DNA from: Halarcobacter sp.
Lineage (GTDB): Bacteria > Campylobacterota > Campylobacteria > Campylobacterales > Arcobacteraceae
DNA: 64,000 bases
Assembly: GCA_963676565.1 (NCBI GenBank)
Contig: OY781089.1
Span: 1,952,001 to 2,016,000 of the forward strand
Direction of reading: 5' to 3'
Shown: piece after piece, positions 1,425-41,313 of the stretch
Position numbering within the stretch: the stretch's first letter is position 1
Layout of the letters: every line of letters begins with the position of its first letter
Program-made: the position numbers and the translations under genes
The notes under the pieces: generated by a model
The model's input: the letters and a program-made list of their open reading frames with translations, nothing else
The model's database searches: none
What the model was told of the DNA's origin: nothing

Positions 1425-1811
1425 GTGAAAAAAATTTTAGTTGTTGATTATGATAATTATATCTCTTCTTATAATTTTTTAAATAGATTAACAACTTATA
1501 AAATTGAGTATGTAAACTGTTATTCAGAATTTAAATTAAAATTTAAAAATAAAAAATATGATTTATGTATTTTAAGTATTGAAGATAACATAGAAAAAGA
1601 CTTTCTTGTATATGATATTTTAGCTTTAGACAAGTATCAAAATATCTTACAATTAGTAAGATCTGACTCTCAGTGTTTTTTTGATAAAGATTGTAAAAGC
1701 TGCGAAAAATATAATATTAAAACTATATTTAGTGATAACGAAGAAAAAATTATAAAGTATATAATAAGCTTTGAAACTTCACTATGTGAGTTTACAAAGC
1801 TTAATATTTAG
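1425..1811 (+). CDS. Atypical single-domain receiver (CheY-like) protein
   Basis: KKILVVDYD start and YDLCILS where the phosphoacceptor Asp is normally found; GTG start with AAGGG RBS. Confidence 0.55.
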   Translation: MKKILVVDYDNYISSYNFLNRLTTYKIEYVNCYSEFKLKFKNKKYDLCILSIEDNIEKDFLVYDILALDKYQNILQLVRSDSQCFFDKDCKSCEKYNIKTIFSDNEEKIIKYIISFETSLCEFTKLNI

Positions 1812-3100
1812 AACTCTTTTATAACAACTTTATTTCTACCTGTATTTTTTGCATTGTATAAAGCTTCATCTGCTCTTTTTATACTATCTTTTATATCTTC
1901 GTTTAAAGAGTGAATAGTTCCACCACAAGAACAAGTTAATTTTATATCATTAGTAAAAGTTGAATTTTCAATATTTTTTCTTAATTTCTCAAGGCTTATT
2001 TCTAAATCGTTATAATTTTTTATCTTTAAGATAAATATAAACTCTTCTCCGCCCCATCTAATAAGATAATCATCCATTCTAGAATATTTTTTTATTATTT
2101 TTACAAAATCGATTAAAACATCATCTCCCACATCATGTCCGTAGGTATCATTGATATTTTTAAAAAAGTCGATATCTAAAATAGCAATACCAAAATTATA
2201 GGTTTCATCCACAAATTTTGATATTAGTTTTCCATAATTATCCTCAAAATACTCTCTGTTAAATGCACCAGTTAATTTATCATGAATAGTTTTATCTTTA
2301 AGTTGAAGTTGTTTTAAAAATGTTTCACTAATATCTGTAAAAGTTAATACTATTGTCTCTTCGTGTTGTGCAATAGTGACTTTAAAAGCTTTTATATTCA
2401 TAGTTTTATGACATAAAATAGATACTATTCTCTCTGACTCAGTTAAGCTTTTTAAACTTTCAATCCAGTTTTCATTTTCATTTACTTTTCCTAAATGGAA
2501 GTAGTTTTCGTTTTCTATAAAGCTTTTTTCAATAGAAGTGTATTCTTTTTTTAATTCATCTAACTTTTCACATGCGTAAAAGTCTAATAGTGTTTTATTA
2601 GCAAATGTGATTTCTAAATTTTTATTATATAAAGCTATCATTGTTGCTTGTGTATTTAAAATCATATGTAAAAAGTCATTTTGCTTTGAGATCTTTTCTT
2701 GAAGTTTTTCTACTTTTCTTTTGATATTTAAAACTTCAAGAGTTTTTTCTAAAACATCCTCTAATATATCTAAATCAATAGGTTTAATAATATACCTATC
2801 TACTTTATATTTAATTGATTCTAGTAAGTATTGGGTGTCATTATGGGCAGAACAAACAATAATAGGGATAGCCTTATTTTTTTCTCTAATTGTCTTGATT
2901 AATTCTAAACCATCAAGATTTGGCATTCGAATATCAGTTAAAATTATGTCAACTTTTTTCTTTTCATATATATTTAATGCCTCTTGTCCATCTTTAGCCA
3001 CATAAACACAATTAAAATAATCTTCTAATACAGAGCTTAACATCTGTGATACTAGTTGGTCATCCTCTGCGTATAAAATTGAAAGTTGAGACTGTTTCAT
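1808..3100 (-). CDS. Response regulator-diguanylate cyclase (REC-PAS-like-GGDEF)
   Basis: ILYAEDD...DIILTDIRMP...KP receiver; HDKLTG, DIDFFK and RWGGEEF cyclase motifs. Confidence 0.9.
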   Translation of the reverse strand: MKQSQLSILYAEDDQLVSQMLSSVLEDYFNCVYVAKDGQEALNIYEKKKVDIILTDIRMPNLDGLELIKTIREKNKAIPIIVCSAHNDTQYLLESIKYKVDRYIIKPIDLDILEDVLEKTLEVLNIKRKVEKLQEKISKQNDFLHMILNTQATMIALYNKNLEITFANKTLLDFYACEKLDELKKEYTSIEKSFIENENYFHLGKVNENENWIESLKSLTESERIVSILCHKTMNIKAFKVTIAQHEETIVLTFTDISETFLKQLQLKDKTIHDKLTGAFNREYFEDNYGKLISKFVDETYNFGIAILDIDFFKNINDTYGHDVGDDVLIDFVKIIKKYSRMDDYLIRWGGEEFIFILKIKNYNDLEISLEKLRKNIENSTFTNDIKLTCSCGGTIHSLNEDIKDSIKRADEALYNAKNTGRNKVVIKEF

Positions 3101-6100
3101 TTTTCATCCTTGTTTTCTAGAGGAATTTCGATTGTAAAAACTGTAATATTATCTTGTACTTTAACATTTATTTTTCCTGATATAGAATCTTCTATTATTA
3201 ATTTTGACATATATAATCCTAATCCTGTACCATTTTTTTCCTCTTTTGTAGAAAAGTATGGTTCAAAAATATTTTCTATTATATTTTGAGGTATTCCCCC
3301 AGCATTATCTTCAATTTTAATTATTAGCTTTTCATTTTCTAATAAATTATATATTTTTATATAAAAGTTTGGATTCTCTTTATTTAATGCTTCTATACTA
3401 TTATTAAGCATAGTTAATAAAACTTGTAACAATTCATTTTTAAAAGTATATATTTTTAGTTTTTGTAAATTATTATATTCAATAATAAGATTATCAACTC
3501 TATTACTTATAAGAACTTTCAAACTTCTATAAAATTCTTCTAATAAAAAAAACTCTTTTTTCTTATCTGGTTTATAAAAATTACAAAAATCATCTATAGT
3601 TTGTGATAGGTGTTTAATAATATCATTTGTTGTATTTTTGTAAAAAATAAATTCATCTTTTTGAGCTACACTAGGCTCTACTTTTCTAATGAACATTTGA
3701 GTTAAAACAGATAATTGATTTAAAGGTTGTCTCCATTGGTGTGCTATCATATTTAACATTTCACCTTGAAGTGCCAATTTACTTTGTTTTTGTAGTAAAA
3801 ATGCCTGTTGTATTCTCTCTTTTTCATTTAAAACTTTTTCTGTAACATCTTGGATTGTTGCTATTGTTTTTATTGGTTTATTGTTAATATCGTGAATTAT
3901 TTTCCAATAAAGTATCATATATTTAACTTTTTTAGTTGGTGTTACTATTCTTAATTCAGTATTATGTTCTTTGTCAGTGTTATAAGAGTTGAAAAGTTTT
4001 TCCCTAAACTCTTCTTTTTCATCAGGATGAATAAATTTAAACAAGATATCTCTACTTATTTTTGGATAATCTTTTTGAGAAATTTCAAAAATATCATAAA
4101 TAGAATCATCTATCTCTTCATAATAGTCTTTAGATAAATCATTTACAAAGGAACTAATTTTTGCCATTTTACGGGCTTGTTTTAAACTATCTGTTAGTTG
4201 CTTTTCTTTTTCTCTTTTTTTATCAAGTATTTTTATATATCTAAATTGAAGAAGGGCAATAATAATCAATAATATAAATAAAACATACCATAACCATTCA
4301 TAGCTTTTCTCAATTACATATTTAGATATTCTGTAATTTGATGCGAAATTATTTAACTCTTCTTTAGAAAAATTACTTATAGTTTTATCAATTGATGAGT
4401 GTAAAAGAGGGTATTTATTATTTACCAAAATTGCACCATTTGCCTTTAAGCTATCAAAAATATCATCAATCTTAAATTTATCAGGTCCATATTTTCTTAT
4501 TATTTCGTCAGCAGTATATGTTGTAAGAATAAAATGAGATTTTGAATCTTTTTTTATTATGTTCATAATCTCATCAATATTTGAATTAACAATTACTTTT
4601 GCTTTAGGATATCTTTCTAGAAATTGACTTTTAAATATTTTATCTTTTACATAAAATGTATGATTATCTAACTGGCTTAAATTTGAAATATATGGATTAT
4701 TTATAGACCCAACTGAAACATAAAACTGATTAAGTATAGGTTTTGTAAACTTAAAATTTTTAAATCCTGTATAGGTGTTTTTTATAATTGAAATGAGATC
4801 ACATCTATTTTTATTTATATTTTCTTCAAACTCTTTTAGGCTATTTGAGGCTATGGGAGTAAACTTAATATTTAGTTTTTTTGATATCTCATCATAAATT
4901 TGACCAGAAATACCAATTAGTTTACTATCTTCAACTCCATCTATTGGATAGTGTTTATATCTTGAACATACTGTAAACTCATTTTTTGTTTTTAAAAAAT
5001 CTATCTCTTCTTTTGTTAGCTGATTATTTTTATCTTTTTGTGAATCATCTCCCAACCATTTTCTTAAAATTGTATTTTTTTCTTCTAAACTTAAGGAGTT
5101 AATACTTTTATTTATAATTGATTGAAGTATTTTGTTATTTGGTTCAACAGCTGCAATTGTATTTGGGGAGAACTCTTTTATTGTATGACTTGAATGGATA
5201 TCTTTAATTCCATACTTCGCTAGAATATGTTTATCCCTGTGAAAAGTGATTACTGCATCAACCTTTCTATTCTCAAGTAGAAAAAAAGTTTCTAAGGTTG
5301 TTTTTTGACCTCTAATTTCTATTTTATCTTTATATTTTTCAAAGGAGTTTTTTAAAGACAAAATATTTTGGTTGTAAGCAACTTTTTTCCCATATAAATC
5401 TTTTATTGAATCTATTTTGAAGGAATTTGAATCTTTAGTAAATATACTATATGAGGACCTTGATAAAGGTTCTGCTTCAAGTAAGTTTTCTTTTTTTGCA
5501 ATATTTTTATTAATTGCAGGTATTACATCTATATTTCCATTTTTTAAATCATTGATTATCTCTTTCCATGATTTGTCTATAAATTCAACTTCAAACCCAA
5601 GGTTTTTACTTAAGGTTTTATAGGTATCTATAATTATTCCATTTAAATTTCCACTACTATCTTTAAAAAAAAGTGGTTCAAATACAGATGAGTGACCCAC
5701 TTTAATAATTGGATTTTCTTTTAAATATTTAATTTCTTCATCAGTAAAAAGATTGTTATACTTATCTATTTGGGTATCATCAGAAATGTTCATATTCCAC
5801 TTTAGTCTTAACTCTTTTAAAGTTTCTTCTGAAATTGTTTTTAAACCCTTTTCAAAGATACTAATTGCCTCGGGGTATTCTTTTATAATACCTATAAACA
5901 CTGGAATTTGTTTGTGATATAAATTTGTATCATGAACTGCTGGTAAAGATTTTTTTGACAAGAGATAATTTACACCATTGACTGTTGGAATAATATCTAT
6001 TAAACCATTAGATAATTTTTCATAACCATCAGCTAAATTATTAATGTAAACAATATTTTTTATGTTTAGTTTATTAATAATATTTTGATGAGTTATTTGA

Positions 6101-6540
6101 TTTTTTTCTATACCTATAGTAAGGTTTTTTAAATCACTATTAGTGAAGTTATTTTTATTTTTGTAATTTGTAGATAAAGAATATTCAATAATTGTATAGG
6201 GCGATGAAAAGTTTAAAAAATCTTCTCTTTGAGGTGTTTTTACAATATTGATAAGACCATCAATTTTTTTATTTTTTACTTGCTCTTGTATTTTAGTCCA
6301 GTCTCCAACAACTAATTGAAAGTTTGCTCCTGTTGCTTTATTAATAAGTTCAAGTATATCTGCATCAACTCCAGTTATTGTTCCATTTTCATTAACAATA
6401 TTTGAAGGTTCCCATCCTGCTCCCGTACCAAGTGTAATTGTATTATGAGATTTTAAAAAGTTTTTTTCTTCTAATGTAAGTTCTATATTACTTGAAAGTA
6501 AAGAAATCGAAAAAAAAATCAAATAAAGAAAAAGTTTCAA
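3097..6540 (-). CDS. BvgS/EvgS-like sensor histidine kinase (signal peptide, three periplasmic-binding-protein domains, TM, PAS, HisKA/HATPase)
   Basis: Three repeats beginning L/FTxEExxF/YLK; IAHQWRQPL H-box; DNAGG, FEPYFSTK and GTGLGL boxes; overlaps the downstream regulator by 4 bp. Confidence 0.9.
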   Translation of the reverse strand: MKLFLYLIFFSISLLSSNIELTLEEKNFLKSHNTITLGTGAGWEPSNIVNENGTITGVDADILELINKATGANFQLVVGDWTKIQEQVKNKKIDGLINIVKTPQREDFLNFSSPYTIIEYSLSTNYKNKNNFTNSDLKNLTIGIEKNQITHQNIINKLNIKNIVYINNLADGYEKLSNGLIDIIPTVNGVNYLLSKKSLPAVHDTNLYHKQIPVFIGIIKEYPEAISIFEKGLKTISEETLKELRLKWNMNISDDTQIDKYNNLFTDEEIKYLKENPIIKVGHSSVFEPLFFKDSSGNLNGIIIDTYKTLSKNLGFEVEFIDKSWKEIINDLKNGNIDVIPAINKNIAKKENLLEAEPLSRSSYSIFTKDSNSFKIDSIKDLYGKKVAYNQNILSLKNSFEKYKDKIEIRGQKTTLETFFLLENRKVDAVITFHRDKHILAKYGIKDIHSSHTIKEFSPNTIAAVEPNNKILQSIINKSINSLSLEEKNTILRKWLGDDSQKDKNNQLTKEEIDFLKTKNEFTVCSRYKHYPIDGVEDSKLIGISGQIYDEISKKLNIKFTPIASNSLKEFEENINKNRCDLISIIKNTYTGFKNFKFTKPILNQFYVSVGSINNPYISNLSQLDNHTFYVKDKIFKSQFLERYPKAKVIVNSNIDEIMNIIKKDSKSHFILTTYTADEIIRKYGPDKFKIDDIFDSLKANGAILVNNKYPLLHSSIDKTISNFSKEELNNFASNYRISKYVIEKSYEWLWYVLFILLIIIALLQFRYIKILDKKREKEKQLTDSLKQARKMAKISSFVNDLSKDYYEEIDDSIYDIFEISQKDYPKISRDILFKFIHPDEKEEFREKLFNSYNTDKEHNTELRIVTPTKKVKYMILYWKIIHDINNKPIKTIATIQDVTEKVLNEKERIQQAFLLQKQSKLALQGEMLNMIAHQWRQPLNQLSVLTQMFIRKVEPSVAQKDEFIFYKNTTNDIIKHLSQTIDDFCNFYKPDKKKEFFLLEEFYRSLKVLISNRVDNLIIEYNNLQKLKIYTFKNELLQVLLTMLNNSIEALNKENPNFYIKIYNLLENEKLIIKIEDNAGGIPQNIIENIFEPYFSTKEEKNGTGLGLYMSKLIIEDSISGKINVKVQDNITVFTIEIPLENKDEK

Positions 6541-6620
6541 ATTGTAGCCTTATATTTTATTATTTTATTGTATCAAAATAAATAAAATTATAAAAACATT
6601 GATAATAATATGCTTCTTAT

Positions 6621-7655
6621 TTAATAAATCATAATAGGACTTGCTCCTCTTGGAATAACTTCACCTATAATAGAAGCATAACCAAAACTTAATTCTTCTA
6701 TAACCTTTATATACTCTTTTGCATCTTCTTCTTTCATGGCTATTAATAGACCTCCTGATGTTTGAGCATCACAATATTGTAAATAACAATCATCAGTTGA
6801 ACACATTATTGTAGTTTTATCTTTTAGAAATTGCATGTTCTTTTTTGTACCACCAGGAAAAATTCCTTGATTAGCTAACTCTATAGCTTCATTGATAATT
6901 GGTACTTCTCCACAATGAATTGCAAATGAATTAAAATTATTTGTAGATTCTAAAGCATGACCTAAAAGACCAAACCCAGTCACATCTGTAACTGAACTAA
7001 CATCATAATCTCTTAAAATTTTTGAAGGTAAATAGTTTAAAGCCTCTAAGATTTTTACAGTTTCATTTTTTGTACTTTCATCTAATAAATCTTTTTTTAT
7101 TGCAGTTGTTAGAATACCCATACCAAGAGGTTTAGTTAAAACTAAGACATGTCCAATTTTTGCTGTATTATTTTTATATATTTTTTTAGGATGAACCATT
7201 CCTGTTACAGAAAGACCATAAAACATCTCTGGAACTTCAATTGTGTGACCACCCATTAAAAGCCCTCCACACTCCTGAATCTTTTCATTCCCACCTCTTA
7301 GCATCTCTTTTAAGACTTCTGTCCCGTGATTTTTTCTATCAAAACCAACAATATTTAATGCAGTTTTAACATTTGCACCCATTGCAAAAACATCTGAAAG
7401 TGAATTTGCAGCAGCAATTTTTCCATAAATATAAGGATCGTCAACTACAGGAGTAATAAAATCTAAGGTTTGGACTATTGCTTCTTCATCATTAATTTTA
7501 TACACAGAAGCATCGTCATTGTTTTCAAATCCAACAAGAACACGACCATCACATGGAGATAGGCTAATTATAGATTGTTTTAGGTCTCCCGGACCCATCT
7601 TAGCTGCTCAACCTGCGGCACGAACGAATTTTGTTAGTTTATATTCTTCATTCAT
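6621..7655 (-). CDS. selD: Selenide, water dikinase (selenophosphate synthetase), selenoprotein, Sec16
   Basis: The ORF-track start (7598) is internal. In-frame upstream sequence reads MNEEYKLTKFVRAAG-TGA(7610-7608)-AAKMGPG; DDASVY, DFITP, GGHT and DAQTSGGLL motifs. Confidence 0.95.
7581..7597 (-). promoter_or_regulatory. Bacterial SECIS of selD copy 1
   Basis: UGGGUC-CGGGA-GACCUA hairpin beginning 10 nt after the UGA. Confidence 0.8.
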
Positions 7656-7844
7656 AAATTCTCTTTTAGCTAGTTACTATAAGCTTAAATTATAATATAT
7701 AAAAATATTTTTAATTAAATTAATATTTGATTAAATTTTACAATTAATGTAGTTAAAATTAGATTAATATATTAGTTATACATATAAGCAATAATTTTAT
7801 TTAAGAAATAATTAATTAAAAAAGCAATATAGTTTCATATTATA

Positions 7845-7904
7845 AGCATTGCCTAAGGTTTAGGCTAGACATAAAAAATTCTTTTTTACTTGACTACTTA
7901 TGCT
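7845..7904 (+). promoter_or_regulatory. Conserved leader element copy 1 (hairpin GCCTAA-GGT-TTAGGC inside an AGCAT...ATGCT stem)
   Basis: Sequence and structure shared with copies at 7911, 10243 and 39619. Confidence 0.7.
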
Positions 7905-7910
7905 GTTTAT

Positions 7911-7983
7911 CGTCTAAGGTTTAGACGCACATGATTTAAAGACAGTACTTACAAAAAATATTCTTCTTTTTCTCATGTATTAC
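7911..7983 (+). promoter_or_regulatory. Conserved leader element copy 2 (CGTCTAA-GGT-TTAGACG followed by ACATGA...TCATGT stem)
   Basis: Tandem second copy with compensatory flanks. Confidence 0.65.
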
Positions 7984-8007
7984 AAAAATTATACAAAGGA
8001 AAATAAA

Positions 8008-9330
8008 ATGGGTGTTGCAGAACATAAAAAACTACTTTCAGATATTGGTGTTGATGTTGACAGACATGCTCAAATGATGAGTATGGGATTAGAATCTTAT
8101 GAGGCACAATTTAAGTCTCAAAATAACAGACCTAAGGGTATGGAATACTTTGATTGGTTTATGAGTGAGATTCAAGGTCAAAGAATTGCAGAGATTAATA
8201 AATTAAGAGCAGAAAATAAGCCTGCAGTTGGTACATTTTGTATTTTTGTTCCTGAAGAGATTATTGTAGGTGCTGGTGGGGCATGTTTTGGATTGTGTGG
8301 TGGAAGTCCTGCTACAATTGCCGATGCTGAAACTGAACTTCCTAGAAATATTTGTCCACTAATTAAATCAGCCCATGGTTTTAAACTTCAAAGAACATGC
8401 GCATATACACAAAGTTCAGATTTTATTTATGGCGAGACAACATGTGAAGCTAAGAAAAAAACTTGGGAAATCTTAAACAAACATCATCCTGTACATGTTA
8501 TGAATATCCCACATATGAAAAGGGAAAAAGATCTTAAAATGTGGCAAGAAGAGATTGTTGAATTTAAAGAGCATATAGAAGAAGTTGCAGGGAAAAAACT
8601 AAGTTTAGAAGAGATGATTGAAGGAACAAAAATCATTAATGAAAAAAGAAAAGCAATGCAAAGACTTGATGCTTTAAGGGGAATGGACCCAGATGTTGTT
8701 CCTATCTCTGGTAAAGATGCACTTTTTATTAATCAAATGGGATTTTTAGATGACCCAAAAAGATACACTCAAAAAGTAAATGAATTGTGTGATGAATTGG
8801 AAAAAAGAGTAGAAGAAAAAAATTCTGTGTTTGAAGAAGATACTCCAAGACTTATGGTTTTAGGAACTCCTATTGCTCCACCAAACTGGAAACTTCATAC
8901 TGCTGTTGAAGGTTCAGGTGGTGCTATTATAAATGAAGAATCATGTATCGGTCACAGATATTATAAAGATAATGTTGATTTAGATAGTGTTAAGAGTGAA
9001 GAGGATTTAATGAAACAATTAATGCAAAGATATAGTGCAGTTGATTGTGCTTGCTTTACACCAAATACACCAAGAATTGATAAAATTTTAAAAATGTATG
9101 AAGATAGATGTGCTGATGGAGTTATTTATTATACTTTATCTTTCTGTCATACATATAATGTTGAATCTCATCTAGTAACAGAAGCACTTGAAGCTGCTGG
9201 AATCCCATGTTTAGTTATTGAATCAGATTATTCACCTGAAGATGCAGGTCAAATTAAAACTAGAGTTGAAGCATTTTTAGAGTCAATCTCTTTTAAGAAA
9301 AAAGCAAAAAACTTTAAAAATAAAGACTAA
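8008..9330 (+). CDS. Double-cubane [8Fe-9S] cluster-type anaerobic reductase (2-hydroxyacyl-CoA dehydratase family, DCCP-like)
   Basis: GTFCIFVPEE, GLCGG, LPRNICPLIKS, GETTCEAKKK, EESCIG, CACFTPN, FCHTY and IESDYS motifs. Start moved to 8008 because of the AAGGA RBS. Paired with an activator gene. Confidence 0.8.
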   Translation: MGVAEHKKLLSDIGVDVDRHAQMMSMGLESYEAQFKSQNNRPKGMEYFDWFMSEIQGQRIAEINKLRAENKPAVGTFCIFVPEEIIVGAGGACFGLCGGSPATIADAETELPRNICPLIKSAHGFKLQRTCAYTQSSDFIYGETTCEAKKKTWEILNKHHPVHVMNIPHMKREKDLKMWQEEIVEFKEHIEEVAGKKLSLEEMIEGTKIINEKRKAMQRLDALRGMDPDVVPISGKDALFINQMGFLDDPKRYTQKVNELCDELEKRVEEKNSVFEEDTPRLMVLGTPIAPPNWKLHTAVEGSGGAIINEESCIGHRYYKDNVDLDSVKSEEDLMKQLMQRYSAVDCACFTPNTPRIDKILKMYEDRCADGVIYYTLSFCHTYNVESHLVTEALEAAGIPCLVIESDYSPEDAGQIKTRVEAFLESISFKKKAKNFKNKD

Positions 9331-9332
9331 AT

Positions 9333-10094
9333 ATGTTTTGGGGAGTTGACGTTGGTTCCACATATACTAAAATATGTGGAATTGATGAACAAAAACAGAT
9401 TATTGATACAATAGTTATTCCAACAATTGTAAATCAAGATGAGATAGTAAAAGATTACTTAAGTAATAAAAATGTTGAGATGTTAGTTTCAACTGGATAT
9501 GGAAGGCATATGATTGAAGACACCTTTTCATGTCCAGTAATTTCAGAAATAAAAGCCCATGCCAAAGGTGCATACTATTTTGCCCAAGAATCTCAAATGG
9601 TAATTGATTTAGGTGGTCAAGATAGCAAAGTTATTATGTTAGATGGAAATGGCGGTTTTGTAGATTTTAAAATGAATGATAAATGTGCCGCTGGAACTGG
9701 AAAATTTTTAGAAATAGCTTCAAGTAGAATGGGACTTACTCTTGAAGAGTTTTCAAAAATTGGCTTTGAAGCCAATAAAGAACTAAGTATCTCAAGCATG
9801 TGTGCAGTTTTTGCAGAATCAGAAGTGATATCTTTAATTGCAAAAAAGGAGAGTGCCGCAAATATTTGTTATGCTGTTCATGATTCCATTGCCTCAAGAC
9901 TTGCCTCAATGGCAAGAAAATTTGCTATCAAAAGTGATGTAATTTTATTTACAGGAGGAGGGGCATTAAATGGTTTTTTACTTCATCTTCTATCAAAAAA
10001 ATTAGAAAAAAATGTAATTAGTGTTGGTTATCCTCAATTAACAGGGGCTATAGGTGCTGCTTTATCTGGTTTTGAAGTTTGTAAAGAACTGTAA
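9333..10094 (+). CDS. ATP-dependent activator (acyl-CoA dehydratase activase / DCCP-R, ASKHA ATPase with [4Fe-4S])
   Basis: GVDVGST, STGYGR, DLGGQDSK, MNDKCAAGTG and SMCAVFAESE motifs. Confidence 0.9.
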   Translation: MFWGVDVGSTYTKICGIDEQKQIIDTIVIPTIVNQDEIVKDYLSNKNVEMLVSTGYGRHMIEDTFSCPVISEIKAHAKGAYYFAQESQMVIDLGGQDSKVIMLDGNGGFVDFKMNDKCAAGTGKFLEIASSRMGLTLEEFSKIGFEANKELSISSMCAVFAESEVISLIAKKESAANICYAVHDSIASRLASMARKFAIKSDVILFTGGGALNGFLLHLLSKKLEKNVISVGYPQLTGAIGAALSGFEVCKEL

Positions 10095-10164
10095 GAAAAA
10101 AAGTTAATTTTGTTCATTAAATAACAAAGAATATATTAAACTAACTTAAATCATTATTTTTAAC

Positions 10165-10182
10165 GGTAAATTTTTTTTTACC
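10165..10182. promoter_or_regulatory. Palindromic operator GGTAAA-N6-TTTACC
   Basis: Perfect copy; also at 19750 and 27292. Confidence 0.55.
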
Positions 10183-10235
10183 TTTAAGAAAAGATTTATA
10201 TTTAATAGTTTAGTATTACATTTAATATTTAAAAA

Positions 10236-10304
10236 AAGCATCAACCTAAGGTTTAGGTTTGGACATAATTGATATGCGTGAAATTATTATGACTACACAT
10301 GCTT
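10236..10304 (+). promoter_or_regulatory. Conserved leader element copy 3 (AAGCAT / AACCTAA-GGT-TTAGGTT / CATAAT..ATTATG / ACTAC / ATGCTT)
   Basis: Most complete three-stem copy; ends about 10 nt before the GGAG RBS. Confidence 0.7.
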
Positions 10305-10324
10305 CAATACACTTGGAGTAATAA

Positions 10325-11419
10325 ATGAACAGAAGAACTTTCTTAAAAAACACAACAATATTGGCTGCAACTTCTACAGTTATACCTAACTTAGTATTTG
10401 CTAATGAAAATAAAAATCCTTTTGGTATCAAAGAGGGTGTTAGAAAATTTACGATTAACAACAATTTTAAACTTGAATCATCAAAAGAAAAAGCTCAAAT
10501 CTGGATTCCAGTTCCATTAAGTTCTAATTATCAAGAATTAGTTGATATCTCTTATTCTGGAAACTATGAAAAAGCAGAAATCGTAGAAAATGAATACAAT
10601 ACAAAAGTTTTATATGCAACTTGGAAAACTGAAGAAAAAGAACCAACAATTGATGTAAAATTTGAGGTAATGACAAAACAAACTTTTGCAGATTTATCAA
10701 AAGCTAAAAATGACGAAAATTATTCAACAAAAATTAAACAATATCTTGAGCCAACAGCTCATATCCCTGTAAATGACAAACTTAAAGAGTTTACTGCACA
10801 AATTATAAAAGATGCAAAAACTCCTTTAGAAAAAGCTCAAGCTATTTATGACTGGACAGTAACTACTATGTATAGAGACAACTCAGTTATAGGATGTGGA
10901 GTTGGAGATGCAGGTAAAGCATTAGATGAAAAAATATATGGTGGAAAATGTACAGATATTAGTTCTGTGTTTGTTTGTTTATTAAGAAATGCAAATATCC
11001 CATCAAGAGAAGTATTTGGTATTAGAGCTGGTAAATCAAAAATCTCAAAAGTTTGTGGTAAAGCAGACGAAAAAGGTTTTGCAAATATTACTGGTGGACA
11101 ACATTGTAGAGCAGAGTTTTATGTAAGTGGTCTAGGTTGGGTTCCAGCAGATCCAGCAGATGTTACAAAAGTAAGACTTGGTGAAAAATTAACAAATGAA
11201 TCTCAAAAAACAATTGATACAAAAAACTTTATGTTTGGAAATTGGGAAATGAATTGGGTTGCATTTAACTATGCTAGAGATTTTGTTTTAAATCCAAAAC
11301 CAACTCAATATCCTTTAAATATGTTAGGGTATCCGTATGCTGAAATAGGTGAAGATGCACAAAACTACTATGATGCAAAAACTTTTGCATATAGTTATAC
11401 TTCTCAAGAGAGAGTATGA
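10325..11419 (+). CDS. Tat-exported transglutaminase-like (Cys-His-Asp) protein
   Basis: MNRRTFLK Tat signal; GGKCTD, QHCRAEFY and WVPADPAD triad motifs. Confidence 0.85.
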   Translation: MNRRTFLKNTTILAATSTVIPNLVFANENKNPFGIKEGVRKFTINNNFKLESSKEKAQIWIPVPLSSNYQELVDISYSGNYEKAEIVENEYNTKVLYATWKTEEKEPTIDVKFEVMTKQTFADLSKAKNDENYSTKIKQYLEPTAHIPVNDKLKEFTAQIIKDAKTPLEKAQAIYDWTVTTMYRDNSVIGCGVGDAGKALDEKIYGGKCTDISSVFVCLLRNANIPSREVFGIRAGKSKISKVCGKADEKGFANITGGQHCRAEFYVSGLGWVPADPADVTKVRLGEKLTNESQKTIDTKNFMFGNWEMNWVAFNYARDFVLNPKPTQYPLNMLGYPYAEIGEDAQNYYDAKTFAYSYTSQERV

Positions 11420-11745
11420 AAAAAAAGGTAAATTTACCTATTATTGGTGCGGTTTTTACCGCACTATTATCAACACTATGTTGTTTACCAGCATTTTTAT
11501 TTATTTTCTTTGGTATTTCAGGTGGAGTTTTAACTTATTTTACAACACTTGAATATATAAGAATCCCAATGGCTGTTTTAACGGTTGTTTTATTTATCTA
11601 TGGAATTAGAAAGCTAAATAAAAAAATAAAATGTGAATGTACAAAGGCTGAAAAACTTAAAAATTATAGTTTTGTAATATTGTCATTTCTTTTAGTTTTA
11701 TCTATACTTTTATATCCTGAGATAATTCCAATGTTTATGGAGTAG
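11416..11745 (+). CDS. MerT-like small membrane transporter
   Basis: Three hydrophobic segments, STLCCLP in TM1, CxC in the loop; 4-bp overlap with the upstream gene. Confidence 0.75.
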   Translation: MKKKVNLPIIGAVFTALLSTLCCLPAFLFIFFGISGGVLTYFTTLEYIRIPMAVLTVVLFIYGIRKLNKKIKCECTKAEKLKNYSFVILSFLLVLSILLYPEIIPMFME

Positions 11746-11748
11746 TAT

Positions 11749-12030
11749 ATGAAATATTTATTAGTATTAGTTCTTTTCATAAGTTCTATTTTTGCACAAC
11801 AAACTTCAGTTTTTGAAGTTAAAGGTATGCATTGTCCTTTATGTACAACAGCCGTTAAAAAAGCTATTAGAAAACTTGATGGTGTAGAAAAAGTAAGCGC
11901 CCGATTAAACACAAAAAGAGTAACTGTTATACATGATGAAAAAGTTACAATTGACTCAATTTTAAAGGCAATAAAAACTACATCTTATGAAGGTGTAGAA
12001 ATCTCTACAGAAAAAGCTATATCAAAATAA
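11749..12030 (+). CDS. MerP-like periplasmic heavy-metal-associated (HMA) protein
   Basis: Sec-type signal peptide followed by VKGMHCPLC HMA motif. Confidence 0.85.
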   Translation: MKYLLVLVLFISSIFAQQTSVFEVKGMHCPLCTTAVKKAIRKLDGVEKVSARLNTKRVTVIHDEKVTIDSILKAIKTTSYEGVEISTEKAISK

Positions 12031-19767: not shown

Positions 19768-19782
19768 AATAAGGCATAGGTT

Positions 19783-21486
19783 ATGCAAGAGTATATTTAC
19801 TACAACAAACAAAACTTAGATTTTCCATTATCTGAAAAGATTTTAGTGACTAACAATATGATTGAATATAAAGATTCAGATTTTATTGTTTCAAATACAA
19901 ATCTTTTTAATGCAGAACTAGTTGCTGATGAAATCGACTTTTATATTAGAAACTCACAAGATACAATAGCTAATAAAATTAAAAATGTTGAAAAACTTTA
20001 TGACTTAAATGAAGTAAGGTTTGACAATGCACAAGATATGACATTTAGTCAAGATGTACAGAAAAAAGTTTTATTAATTTGTGATGAGTCATGGAAAAAA
20101 GAGTTTATTAAAAAAATAGTCTCAAATGAATTCGATCTTTTTCATATAAATGAAAATATTTTAAAATCAATTGATGGTTCAATTGGAAATTTAAATGTAA
20201 TAGTAGATGATGAGAATAAAGATGTAACTTTAAATGTAGACCAAATTATATGGTTTGACATGAAAGATGAAGGTAAAAAACAAAGTGGTTGTTTTGATCC
20301 TCTTGAAACTTCTATTGATGATGTTTTAGCTCAAGTAAGAGCGAATATTTCAAATTATGAATATAGAAAATTTTTAACTTATGATAAAACTATCTGTCAA
20401 TATCACGAAAGAAGAGAAGAAACTTGCGCTAAGTGTGTAGACGTTTGCCCAACAACTACAATTATTAAAGATGATAAAAATAAACATTTACACTTTTCTC
20501 AAATTGATTGTCATGGATGTGGCGGTTGTATCTCAGTATGTCCAAGTGGTGCTTTAGATTATACACCATCAAATAGAGAGTCTATTTATTCAATGAGTAA
20601 ATTTTTCGATGGACATATCCCTTTGATTGTTCCACATAAAATGAATATCTCATCTTTAGAAGTATCCTTAAAAGAGAATGTTTTACCATTTAAAATAGAA
20701 GGTGAGAAATTTTTACATGAATCAACTTTATTAACATTATTGCAAGAATCAGGTTCACAAGTAGTTTTTTATACTGACTTTTTATCTAAAGGAACAATTG
20801 ATTCTATTTCTATATTAAATCAAATTTATCAAGCAAAATATCAAAAAGATGCAATTATCGTTGTAATGAATAAAGAAGAGTTGATTGATGCTTTAGAAAA
20901 AGCAGATTTTATTGATGGGTCTAAATATAAATTAAATGATATGAGTTTAAGAAAAAGAGAAAATTTTGCAATAAGACTTTCAAAAATTGTTGGTGAATAT
21001 GATTATGGTGAAGTACAAACAGGACCAAATGTTCATTATGCAAAGGTTGAAGTAAATGAAGCAAATTGTACTTTATGTTTATCATGTGTTGGTGCATGTA
21101 ATGTAAATGCAATCTTTGCAGATGCTAAAGACAATACTTTAAGATTAAATCCTTCTTTATGTACATCATGTGGATATTGTGAAGCATCTTGCCCTGAAGC
21201 AGACTGTTTAACAATAAAAAGAGACGTAATTGAATTACAACCTATGTGGTTTAAAGAAAATATTTTAGCAAAAGATTCACTTTTTGCCTGTGTTGAGTGT
21301 GGTAAAGAGTTTGCTACAACAAAATCAGTTGAAAAGATTGCAAAAATCATGTCTCCTATCTTTGCTAAAGATCCAATCAAAGAAAGAACACTTTATTGTT
21401 GTGAAACATGTAAACCAAAAATTATGATGAAAAGTTATATGGAAAATAAAGATGCATATAATAATCCACAAGGTGTAAGTTTATGA
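19783..21486 (+). CDS. FDH-associated polyferredoxin (multiple 4Fe-4S)
   Basis: Motifs CAKCVDVCP, CHGCGGCISVCP, CTLCLSCVGAC, CTSCGYCEASCP, CVECGK and CCETC. Confidence 0.88.
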   Translation: MQEYIYYNKQNLDFPLSEKILVTNNMIEYKDSDFIVSNTNLFNAELVADEIDFYIRNSQDTIANKIKNVEKLYDLNEVRFDNAQDMTFSQDVQKKVLLICDESWKKEFIKKIVSNEFDLFHINENILKSIDGSIGNLNVIVDDENKDVTLNVDQIIWFDMKDEGKKQSGCFDPLETSIDDVLAQVRANISNYEYRKFLTYDKTICQYHERREETCAKCVDVCPTTTIIKDDKNKHLHFSQIDCHGCGGCISVCPSGALDYTPSNRESIYSMSKFFDGHIPLIVPHKMNISSLEVSLKENVLPFKIEGEKFLHESTLLTLLQESGSQVVFYTDFLSKGTIDSISILNQIYQAKYQKDAIIVVMNKEELIDALEKADFIDGSKYKLNDMSLRKRENFAIRLSKIVGEYDYGEVQTGPNVHYAKVEVNEANCTLCLSCVGACNVNAIFADAKDNTLRLNPSLCTSCGYCEASCPEADCLTIKRDVIELQPMWFKENILAKDSLFACVECGKEFATTKSVEKIAKIMSPIFAKDPIKERTLYCCETCKPKIMMKSYMENKDAYNNPQGVSL

Positions 21487-39618: not shown

Positions 39619-39633
39619 ACCTAAGGTTTAGGT
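39619..39633 (+). promoter_or_regulatory. Conserved leader element copy 4 (ACCTAA-GGT-TTAGGT)
   Basis: Same 11-nt core, upstream of yedF-selD2. Confidence 0.65.
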
Positions 39634-39684
39634 TATAAAACTTCACAAACTATAAATATGATTAAAAAATTATCGGAGAAAATT

Positions 39685-40281
39685 ATGAATTTAGATTGCA
39701 AAGGTTTAGTTTGTCCAGAACCTGTTTTAAAAACTAAAAAAGCTTTAGAAGAGTTAGAAGAAAACTCTGTCTTAGAAGTATTAGTAGACAATATTGCCTC
39801 ACAGGAAAATGTAGTTAGATTTGCCACAAAACAAGGCTTTAGTTCTGAAGTTGAGGATTTAGGTAATAATGAGTTTAAAGTAACTATTGTAAAAGGTTAT
39901 GAGTGTAGTGTTGCAACAAAAGACTCTTTAGGTGAATCGAAATTTTTAAATAAGACAGTATTTATAAAAGATGACAAAGTAGGTGAGGGTGAATTAGGTA
40001 GTATGCTTGTAGTTGGCTTTTTGAAAAGTATGCTTGAATTACCAAAATTACCAAAAACTATTATTTGTGTAAATAAAGGTGTCTTACTAACAACAGCAGA
40101 TGAAAATAGTGATATCATTGAAATATTTAAAAACTTAGAGGAAAAAGGTGTAGAGATTTTTTCTTGTGGAGTTTGTTTAGAGTTTTATGAAGTTGCCAAT
40201 AATCTTAAAGTTGGTAAAATAGGAAATGCCTACGCAACAGTAGAGACATTATTAAACAGTGAAGGAACTATAAGTTTATAA
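39685..40281 (+). CDS. yedF: Selenium metabolism sulfurtransferase-like protein YedF (TusA + DsrE domains)
   Basis: LDCKGLVCPEPV TusA motif, GEGELG and SCGVCL DsrE-like motif; GGAG RBS; abuts selD. Confidence 0.85.
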   Translation: MNLDCKGLVCPEPVLKTKKALEELEENSVLEVLVDNIASQENVVRFATKQGFSSEVEDLGNNEFKVTIVKGYECSVATKDSLGESKFLNKTVFIKDDKVGEGELGSMLVVGFLKSMLELPKLPKTIICVNKGVLLTTADENSDIIEIFKNLEEKGVEIFSCGVCLEFYEVANNLKVGKIGNAYATVETLLNSEGTISL

Positions 40282-41313
40282 ATGAATAACCAACATAAAT
40301 TAACTAAATATGTAAAAGCCGCAGGTTGAGCAGCCAAATTAGCTCCGGGGGAGCTATCACATTTACTTGGTAAGCTTGAATGCGACGATGAAAGATTAAT
40401 TGTAGGAATTGATAGTAGTGATGATGCAACTGTATTTGTACTAAATGAAAATCAAGCAATGGTACAAACAGTTGATTATATTACTCCAGTTATTGATGAT
40501 CCATTTTTATATGGACAAATAGCTGCTGCAAATTCACTTAGTGATATTTTTGCTATGGGAGCTGATGTTTTAACAGCTATGAACCTAGTAGGATTTGATG
40601 GTTGTCATCATCCCAAAGAGGTTTTAGCAGAAATCTTACAAGGTGGCTTAACAAAAGTTAAAGAGTGTGGAGGTGTTCTTGCTGGTGGACATACCATTGA
40701 AGCTCCTGAGATGACATATGGTTTAAGTGTAAGTGGAACTGTTCATCCAAAAAAAGTATTTAGAAATAATACACCAAGAATTGGAGATGTTTTAATACTT
40801 ACTAAACCTATTGGAATAGGAGTTTTAACAACTGGAATAAAAGCAGATATGCTAGATGATAAAGTGATATTAAAAGGTGCATCTATAATGGCACAATTAA
40901 ATCATAAAGCTTCATTATGTGCTAGAGAGTTTGATGTTAGTGCTTGTACAGATATTACAGGATTTGGTTTAGCAGGGCATGCTTTAGAGATGGCATCAAA
41001 AAATGTAAGCCTTGAGTTTGATTTTGAAAAGATTCCAATAATAGAAGAATCAATTGAATTAGCCTCAATGGGGATTATCCCTGGTGGGACATATAATAAT
41101 AGGGCCTATGTAAAACCAAATGTAGAAGTACAAAGAGATTTTGAAAATGAGATTTTCTTTTATGATGCTCAAACTTCAGGAGGACTTTTAATAAGTGTAT
41201 CTCAAGAAGATGCACCAAAATTATTAGATAGGCTTAAAAGTGAAGGCTATGAGTATAGCTCAATAATTGCCACTGTAAAACAAAAACAACAAAAGAGTTT
41301 AATACTCAAATAG
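40282..41313 (+). CDS. selD: Selenide, water dikinase copy 2, selenoprotein, Sec16
   Basis: ATG at 40282: MNNQHKLTKYVKAAG-TGA(40327-40329)-AAKLAPG..., in frame with track ORF 40459. Confidence 0.95.
40340..40356 (+). promoter_or_regulatory. Bacterial SECIS of selD copy 2
   Basis: UAGCUC-CGGGG-GAGCUA, 10 nt after the UGA; covaries with the selD1 SECIS. Confidence 0.85.

Follow-up and report, generated by a model that had tools for sequence, protein, structure and literature searches.

The DNA examined is a 64,000-nucleotide (nt) stretch of Halarcobacter sp. contig OY781089.1 (forward strand, positions 1,952,001 to 2,016,000; hereafter, the window), in which an operon of three genes encodes a transglutaminase-fold enzyme, a MerT-like membrane protein and a MerP-like periplasmic protein (together, the triad). 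The original prediction, made from the sequence without database searches, had read the triad as a mercury-type thiol relay repurposed for the import of selenium species. This reading is supported by the restriction of the enzyme gene to genomes with selD and its frequent adjacency to that gene, by fusions of TusA domains to the MerT-like protein, by a regulon that includes yedF-selD, and by a predicted complex between the MerP-like protein and the enzyme. The link between the triad and selenium metabolism is considered strong, and is held with high confidence. The host genome, a member of the Arcobacteraceae, is complete (3.34 Mb, 28% G+C), and its nearest named homologs belong to Halarcobacter, Malaciobacter and Arcobacter.

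Operon Structure and Encoded Proteins

The three genes follow one another at 10325-12030 (+) in the open reading frame (ORF) list of the window. The first (10325-11419, +) specifies a 364 aa transglutaminase-fold protein with a Cys-His-Asp triad, a Pfam Transglut_core match and a twin-arginine (Tat) signal at its N-terminus (MNRRTFLK); the second (11416-11745, +) specifies a membrane protein of 109 aa with three predicted helices and a Pfam MerT match; and the third (11749-12030, +) specifies a periplasmic protein of 93 aa with a signal peptide, a Pfam HMA match and the motif C29-P-L-C32. The start of the merT-like ORF overlaps the stop of the enzyme gene by 4 nt, and only 3 nt separate the merT-like and merP-like ORFs, so that the tight coupling claimed in the original prediction was borne out. 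A single MerT-like copy is present in the genome.

The enzyme scored 73.6 bits against Transglut_core (PF01841, cut-off 23). Its relatives were divided into 79 that are linked to a triad and 29 others, and the transglutaminase catalytic residues (C209, H260 and D276) are invariant in both groups. Two further cysteines, C191 and C261, are also conserved without exception in both groups, in agreement with the extra cysteines that had been noted from the sequence, and the twin arginine is retained in 62 of the 79 triad-linked proteins. An AlphaFold2 model of the enzyme (mean predicted local distance difference test score, pLDDT, 91.5) contains the papain-like transglutaminase core fold, and the closest solved fold is that of 3isr, a putative cysteine protease (TM-score 0.58/0.71, Foldseek E 5e-17, 14% identity). 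Other Foldseek matches were to the periplasmic domain of TgpA and to TG2/TG3. The enzyme shares both fold and Cys-His-Asp triad with bacterial transglutaminase-like cysteine proteases such as 3isr and the TgpA periplasmic domain (6g49), but differs from them in its two additional invariant cysteines, its Tat signal, an N-terminal beta-sandwich, and its obligate pairing with MerT and MerP in most lineages.

A search for homologs with UGA at the cysteine positions had been suggested, and none were found in the limited look made. Shortened enzyme representatives (P0130 and others) were considered as selenocysteine (Sec) forms and rejected, since they resemble frameshifts or fragments and have no UGA at a cysteine, and the single TGA flagged inside 13 Campylobacter enzyme matches is an upstream-frame stop that precedes the start codon. 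Several variant forms of the enzyme were seen. P0121 (676 aa) is a lipoprotein-like tandem duplication in which all three cysteines are present in each half. A tandem pair of enzyme genes occurs in the Campylobacter gracilis-like group (5529-6584 and 7001-8071 in locus L046), where the upstream copy is an open frame of 351 aa in L046 itself, while the corresponding match in nine sampled genomes was flagged with two in-frame TAA codons. A shorter branch of the enzyme family in Desulfobacterota is accompanied by neither a MerT-like nor a MerP-like gene, and in two of these loci a rhodanese gene adjoins it. In a Pseudomonadota bin (L084, 4938-8068), a MerT-less enzyme relative adjoins selD and a gene for an EgtD-like histidine methyltransferase (Methyltransf_33), an arrangement that recalls selenoneine-type clusters.

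The CC-bearing, three-helix membrane protein described in the original prediction is MerT-like; it matches Pfam MerT right at the threshold (33.0 bits, cut-off 32.9; 24-50 bits for orthologs) and falls far short of the NCBIfam equivalog NF010314 (31.4 bits, cut-off 150). Its top NCBIfam match was to a MerT/CopZ-like selenoprotein model, at a score far below the cut-off of that model. MerT proteins carry a CC pair in the first helix and a pair of cysteines in a cytoplasmic loop. The protein encoded here has C22-C23 in its first hydrophobic stretch (helix 1) and C73 and C75 in the loop before the third hydrophobic stretch. The helix-1 pair is conserved in 66 of 67 MerT-like orthologs and C73 in all 67, while a second loop cysteine at the position of C75 is found in only 29 of 67, and a different spacing occurs in the TusA-fused forms. 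The third protein has a signal-peptide-like N-terminus, the HMA fold and the motif GMHCPLC (a GMxCxxC type), and scored 54.1 bits against Pfam HMA (PF00403, cut-off 24.8), as expected of the periplasmic CxxC protein first described; C29 and C32 are kept in 66 of 66 orthologs. Its scores against the MerP equivalog TIGR02052 (47.7 bits, cut-off 92.55) and against CopZ were below the respective cut-offs.

In seven of 13 loci from other Campylobacterota families, a TusA domain is fused to the N-terminus of the MerT-like protein (185-238 aa in total; PF01206 at 38-73 bits, cut-off 28.6), with the CPxP cysteine motif present. In the accepted topology of MerT, the N-terminus faces the cytoplasm, and a TusA domain at this position points to a sulfur or selenium carrier, rather than a metal reductase, as the acceptor. 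These fusions came from genome loci; a protein search for longer MerT-like relatives returned none.

The absence of merA and merR had been claimed for the window and can be extended to the entire 3.34 Mb genome, in which nothing exceeded the cut-off for MerA (best model match 299.6 bits, cut-off 454) or for the Hg-type MerR (best match 45.1, cut-off 150.85). A merA gene elsewhere in the same regulon would have spoken against the original prediction, and none was found anywhere in the genome; neither merA nor merR was seen in annotated related loci. The triad resembles the Mer Hg(II) relay (MerP to MerT to the N-terminal domain of MerA) in its periplasmic CxxC HMA protein with signal peptide, its three-helix membrane protein with a helix-1 CC pair and cytoplasmic-loop cysteine(s), and its adjacent, coupled genes. 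It differs in that merA, merR and other mer genes are missing from the genome, the scores fall below the MerT and MerP equivalog cut-offs, the operon opens with the gene for a transglutaminase-fold enzyme, the cytoplasmic partner in seven loci is a fused TusA domain, and the triad is linked to and co-regulated with selD and yedF.

A model of the complex between enzyme residues 30-364 and MerP-like residues 18-93 gave a score of 0.71, while none of the three controls scored above 0.06. Of 157 solved complexes, 116 attain this value, as do two of 215 mismatched pairs; these counts hold only roughly because our own alignments were used. The runs agreed in 100% of contacts, and the pLDDT of the partners was at least 86. 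In the model, the CxxC loop of the MerP-like protein (residues 28-31, 33-34 and 37) contacts enzyme residues 193 and 195, beside C191, as well as the conserved enzyme loops 326-332 and 343-349, which supports a predicted docking of the MerP-like protein on the enzyme through its CxxC loop. Residues 50-54 of the MerP-like protein also belong to the predicted interface.

In the Campylobacter concisus/gracilis group, a gene for a PepD-like M20 dipeptidase (Xaa-His / Cys-Gly type) lies 3' of merP in the same direction (L033, 8669-9946; L036, 8667-9956; L046, 9413-10690). It is compatible with a glutathione-conjugate substrate, but this is only a hint.

Distribution and Co-Occurrence with selD

The co-occurrence of the enzyme gene with selD was followed in four genome samples, which overlap in part. 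Among 121 Arcobacteraceae genomes, all 40 with the enzyme gene also have selD, which is present in 75 genomes of the sample, and none of the 46 selD-negative genomes carries the enzyme gene. The corresponding figures are 47 of 47 for 121 Campylobacteraceae genomes (93 selD-positive; 0/28 selD-negative genomes with the enzyme) and 17 of 17 for 251 Enterobacterales genomes (87 selD-positive; 0/164). For a sample of 251 genomes across the phylum Campylobacterota, a manual reading of two tables gave 94 of 94 (190 selD-positive; 0/61). The enzyme gene was therefore confined to selD-positive genomes in all four samples, and carriers without selD, the pattern that would have spoken against the original prediction, were not seen in them. 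Another 35 genomes were reached via their loci, and selD was found in 33 of them (5/5 and 28/30); the two without it are metagenome bins. Within single genera and small families, the enzyme gene and selD are present or missing in the same genomes (genera g12, 4/11, and g18, 6/8; families f4, 2/6, and f5, 4/6).

The triad occurs in at least ten Campylobacterota families and in Enterobacterales. Its gene order is preserved in Sulfurospirillaceae, the Campylobacter concisus/gracilis group, Sulfurovum and Helicobacteraceae, in Enterobacterales (Rosenbergiella, Buttiauxella, Pseudocitrobacter and a set of genomes of about 2 Mb), and in Shewanella, Wohlfahrtiimonas and two Alcaligenaceae. A profile search of 91 loci (L002-L092) found a MerT-like protein in 66 and a MerP-like protein in 65. 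Each of the 20 Arcobacteraceae loci that were fetched has an intact triad with selD within 6 kb of it, for the most part as a divergent immediate neighbor and in one case in the co-directional order enzyme-merT-merP-selD-selA. Thirteen loci from seven other Campylobacterota families contain the triad in 12 cases and selD in the same stretch in seven. The loci with a TusA-fused MerT often also have yedF, selD and a double-cubane reductase in the same run of genes; one of them (L114) carries, on a single strand, the order reductase-activase-yedF-enzyme-TusA~MerT-MerP-selD.

A Conserved Upstream Palindrome

A palindrome or hairpin, AACCTAA-GGT-TTAGGTT, lies at 10243-10259 (+), 75 nt 5' of the start codon of the enzyme gene. 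Two copies of this palindrome precede a reductase gene (7851-7865 and 7911-7927, +) and another precedes yedF-selD2 (39619-39633, +); a further site of this type, with a GGT center, is at 19774-19786. Exactly four copies of the 11-mer CTAAGGTTTAG are present in the genome, all of them on the plus strand: two before the reductase gene, one before the triad operon and one before yedF-selD2. The leader element that the original prediction had assigned to both the triad and yedF-selD2 was recovered in this genome search, with the reductase gene as an additional member. A related palindrome, GCATA-GGT-TATGC, is found at the start of the first formate dehydrogenase operon.

Of 30 Arcobacteraceae loci, 28 have a palindrome of this type 72-104 nt 5' of the enzyme gene, as do three of three Sulfurospirillaceae loci, with the stem variants CCTAA, CCATA, GCATA, CTTAA, GTCTAA and GTCTGA; none was found upstream of the enzyme gene in 10 loci from Campylobacter, Sulfurovum and Proteobacteria. 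An alignment of 28 sites showed 99.4% of cells paired and compensatory two-sided changes in five of six stem pairs, although each row is the best hairpin of its upstream region, a selection that favors pairing. Generic 5-bp hairpins with GGT or GGA loops (278) are no more common than those with control loops (278-322), and meaning can therefore be attached to the specific palindrome only.

In four Sulfurospirillaceae genomes, the triad, reductase and yedF-selD operons are on different contigs. The pattern GTCTRAGGYTYAGAC has 10 exact matches in these genomes, all in the sense orientation, and the reversed-pattern control had none. The 10 sites precede enzyme-merT (four), reductase-activase (three) and yedF-selD (two), with the remaining one at a contig end with a reductase-type flank. 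Since the same three types of operon carry the palindrome where they are unlinked, the triad is connected with yedF and selD through a conserved regulon, independently of adjacency.

The constant, asymmetric GGT center, the complementary variation of the flanks within one genome, and the position 20-50 nt before yedF suggest that the palindrome may act as RNA, in the manner of the SECIS-like (selenocysteine insertion sequence-like) SelB site in the Escherichia coli selAB leader. In E. coli, the selAB 5' untranslated region contains a SECIS-like element that binds SelB, according to the available part of the report (PMC13449736). The palindrome resembles that element in being a short hairpin with a G-G-U loop and a covarying stem that precedes selenium-metabolism genes; it differs in that it could be a DNA operator, and SelB binding is putative. 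A G-G-U loop is possible in the fdhA SECIS region of this organism, but not in its selD SECIS regions. A -35-like TTGACA box directly 3' of the palindrome in many loci suggests that it may instead act as a DNA operator. A class II activator site was ruled out, because the palindrome is only about 20-50 nt 5' of the yedF start codon. No Rfam family was found on the leader, either at gathering scores over the window or at E up to 10 over 7650-10330, and the promoter and terminator scan gave nothing above shuffled sequences.

A second, AT-rich palindrome (GGTAAA-T9-TTTACC) is located at 10165-10182 (+) and is a possible operator or promoter element. The type GTAAA-W3-10-TTTAC has 17 sites in the genome, five of them in the window (1324, 10166, 19751, 27172 and 27293), and one of these palindromes is directly 5' of the first formate dehydrogenase operon. 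A similar AT-rich palindrome lies about 150 nt 5' of the enzyme gene in most Arcobacteraceae loci.

Relationship of the Triad to YedE

The specific acquisition of trace selenium by bacteria is still unsettled. In the available part of Lin et al. 2015 (PMC5322559), YedE is proposed as no more than a candidate selenium transporter, and many selenium users are noted to lack all of the candidates put forward there; the same source cites the finding that fdhTU control the biogenesis of selenium-dependent formate dehydrogenase in Campylobacter jejuni. YedE (NF033796) had no match in the genome of the window at E 1e-20, and five more triad carriers outside Arcobacteraceae were also without it. Like the enzyme gene, YedE/FdhT is found in selD-positive genomes (29/29 carriers in Arcobacteraceae, 29/30 in Campylobacteraceae). 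Among the 93 selD-positive Campylobacteraceae, the enzyme and YedE/FdhT are for the most part mutually exclusive, with both in four genomes, the enzyme only in 43, YedE only in 25 and neither in 21 (odds ratio 0.078). In the genus of the window, YedE is present in none of six enzyme-positive genomes but in four of five that are selD-positive and enzyme-negative. Among the 75 selD-positive Arcobacteraceae, both are present in 23 genomes, the enzyme only in 17, YedE only in six and neither in 29 (odds ratio 6.5). A simple replacement of YedE by the triad was considered and does not fit this co-presence; it holds in Campylobacteraceae and in the genus of the window, but fails in other Arcobacteraceae genera. 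Some lineages thus have the triad in place of YedE, and others have it alongside YedE.

The triad resembles YedE/YedF (FdhT/FdhU) in being found in selD-positive genomes, in combining a membrane part with a TusA-like carrier, and in having yedF in its regulon. The MerT-like protein, however, belongs to an unrelated membrane family with no sequence similarity to YedE, and YedE has no periplasmic partners.

Proposed Relay and Alternatives

The reading that we favor, and consider reasonably probable, is that the triad is an inward selenium-acquisition relay built on the MerP-MerT design. We infer selenium (as opposed to sulfur) as the substrate, the inward direction, the chemistry of the enzyme, and each step of transfer. 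The Tat-exported enzyme would capture or release periplasmic selenium on activated cysteines, probably bound as a cysteine selenotrisulfide or perselenide derived from selenite or from a conjugate of selenium with thiols (selenodiglutathione, for example), and would hand it to the CxxC pair of the MerP-like protein. From there, selenium could pass to the helix-1 CC pair of the MerT-like protein, move to its cytoplasmic-loop cysteine, and then to a TusA/YedF-type carrier and finally SelD; the co-regulated double-cubane reductase is a candidate for a final reduction to selenide. A chemical parallel may be drawn between two-coordinate Hg(SR)2 and Se(SR)2, and the selenium would move by thiol exchange. 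A bolder version, in which this is the first dedicated multi-step selenium import system, with the enzyme as a 'selenium capturase', an ATP-driven reductase releasing selenide, and a regulon switched by a SECIS-like hairpin that senses Sec-tRNA/SelB, is possible but doubtful.

Several observations weigh against an inward selenium relay. The genes are embedded among unrelated genes in Campylobacter, Helicobacteraceae, Sulfurovum and Enterobacterales. Presence of selD is common (62-77% of genomes in each of the three samples from Campylobacterota), and genomes that share descent do not count as independent cases, so that the nesting of the enzyme gene within selD-positive genomes is weaker than the raw counts; Enterobacterales (35% with selD) and the co-variation within genera are more telling. 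Selenium use does not require the triad, given the selD-positive genomes with neither enzyme nor YedE (29 of 75 Arcobacteraceae and 21 of 93 Campylobacteraceae), and the relation to YedE is mixed, since enzyme and YedE occur together above expectation in Arcobacteraceae (23 of 40 carriers). The TusA and rhodanese partners are carriers of sulfur and selenium alike, the closest solved relatives of the enzyme are themselves uncharacterized and have no known substrate, the form of the substrate is putative, and the direction of transport cannot be read from sequence.

If the cargo were sulfur, the enzyme, MerP-like and MerT-like proteins would pass periplasmic sulfane sulfur (persulfide or polysulfide) on to carriers of the TusA type, and selD would be linked to them indirectly, via shared habitats or carriers. 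The TusA~MerT fusions, and the rhodanese beside the MerT-less enzyme in two Desulfobacterota loci, are classical sulfur-transfer parts, and the sequences of such carriers do not separate sulfur from selenium. Sulfur use is universal, however, yet the enzyme gene was in none of the selD-negative genomes sampled; moreover, the triad lies beside selD, selA and yedF, and its cis element is common to yedF-selD and not to sulfur-assimilation genes. We regard sulfur relay as improbable for these reasons. The family matches to MerT, HMA, CopZ and MerP and the conserved CC and CxxC motifs would also suit a system for thiophilic metals, in which Hg(II), Cu(I), Ag(I) or Cd(II) is moved for detoxification or for the metallation of periplasmic enzymes. 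This is very unlikely in a genome with no MerA or Hg-type MerR and with scores far under the equivalog cut-offs for MerT and MerP; the domain fused on the cytoplasmic side is TusA and not HMA, the regulon partners are yedF-selD and the reductase, and a role in metal transfer leaves the restriction to selD-positive genomes unexplained.

The triad could also work in the opposite sense, in selenium export, in periplasmic detoxification, or in salvage for or from periplasmic Sec-formate dehydrogenases. Two operons for such dehydrogenases are in the window, the first preceded by the related palindrome, direction does not show in the sequence, and an export role for YedE is considered in the available part of Lin et al. 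2015 (PMC5322559). Insertion of Sec is cytoplasmic, however, so that selenium is needed inside the cell, and Mer proteins are known to relay their cargo inward. An acceptor side in the cytoplasm is also indicated by the TusA fusion and by the gene order of the operon with yedF and selD, and we give an outward or periplasmic role little credence.

A full-text literature search, which did not cover the supplements of cited papers, found no paper linking the enzyme-MerT-MerP triad to selenium. Among the STRING partners of YedF in Slackia, the available part of Lin et al. 2015 (PMC5322559) lists a 'transglutaminase-like enzyme', 2-hydroxyglutaryl-CoA-dehydratase-like genes and an activase, there without comment; the tandem protein P0121 may correspond to this Slackia enzyme. 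MerT-family selenoproteins are mentioned in the accessible portion of a 2022 preprint by Haft, and a 2022 review, as far as its accessible text goes, lists one. What appears to be new here is a variant Mer-type thiol relay, one that involves a new enzyme and belongs to a regulon of its own. If the selenium relay is correct, the triad would be a second route for selenium, mechanistically unlike YedE in that a mercury-import scaffold is combined with a new enzyme; a function would be assigned to a widespread and uncharacterized transglutaminase-like family, and a small regulon for selenium, marked by a separate cis element, would be defined. Hosts of the triad include oral, gut and mucosal bacteria (the Campylobacter concisus group, and the Enterobacterales genomes of about 2 Mb, for which a Pasteurellaceae label is unconfirmed) as well as marine and vent Campylobacterota.

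Flanking Genes

The window forms an island of genes for selenium metabolism and formate dehydrogenases. Located in it are selA and the gene for tRNA-Sec, two periplasmic formate dehydrogenase operons with one in-frame UGA each, and moeA and ABC transporter genes. A gene for selenophosphate synthetase, selD1 (6621-7655, -), has an in-frame UGA near its N-terminus, and selD adjoins the triad directly in most relatives. Between selD1 and the triad in the window are the genes for a double-cubane-cluster reductase (7975-9330, +; NF040772, 453.8 bits) and its ATPase activase (9333-10094, +; TIGR00241, 224.8 bits). Farther downstream are yedF (39658-40281, +; TIGR03527, 210.7 bits, cut-off 110) and selD2 (about 40294-41313, +), the latter also with an in-frame UGA.

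Genes for a histidine kinase and a response regulator with GGDEF output adjoin the selenium genes at 1808-6540 (-), and similar kinase/regulator pairs occur just 3' of merP in at least 15 of 20 Arcobacteraceae loci. In six Arcobacteraceae loci (L003, L011, L014, L019, L022 and L025), a short gene that resembles only the C-terminal, DsrE-like half of YedF adjoins the triad, and is positioned between the triad and either selD or the reductase gene.

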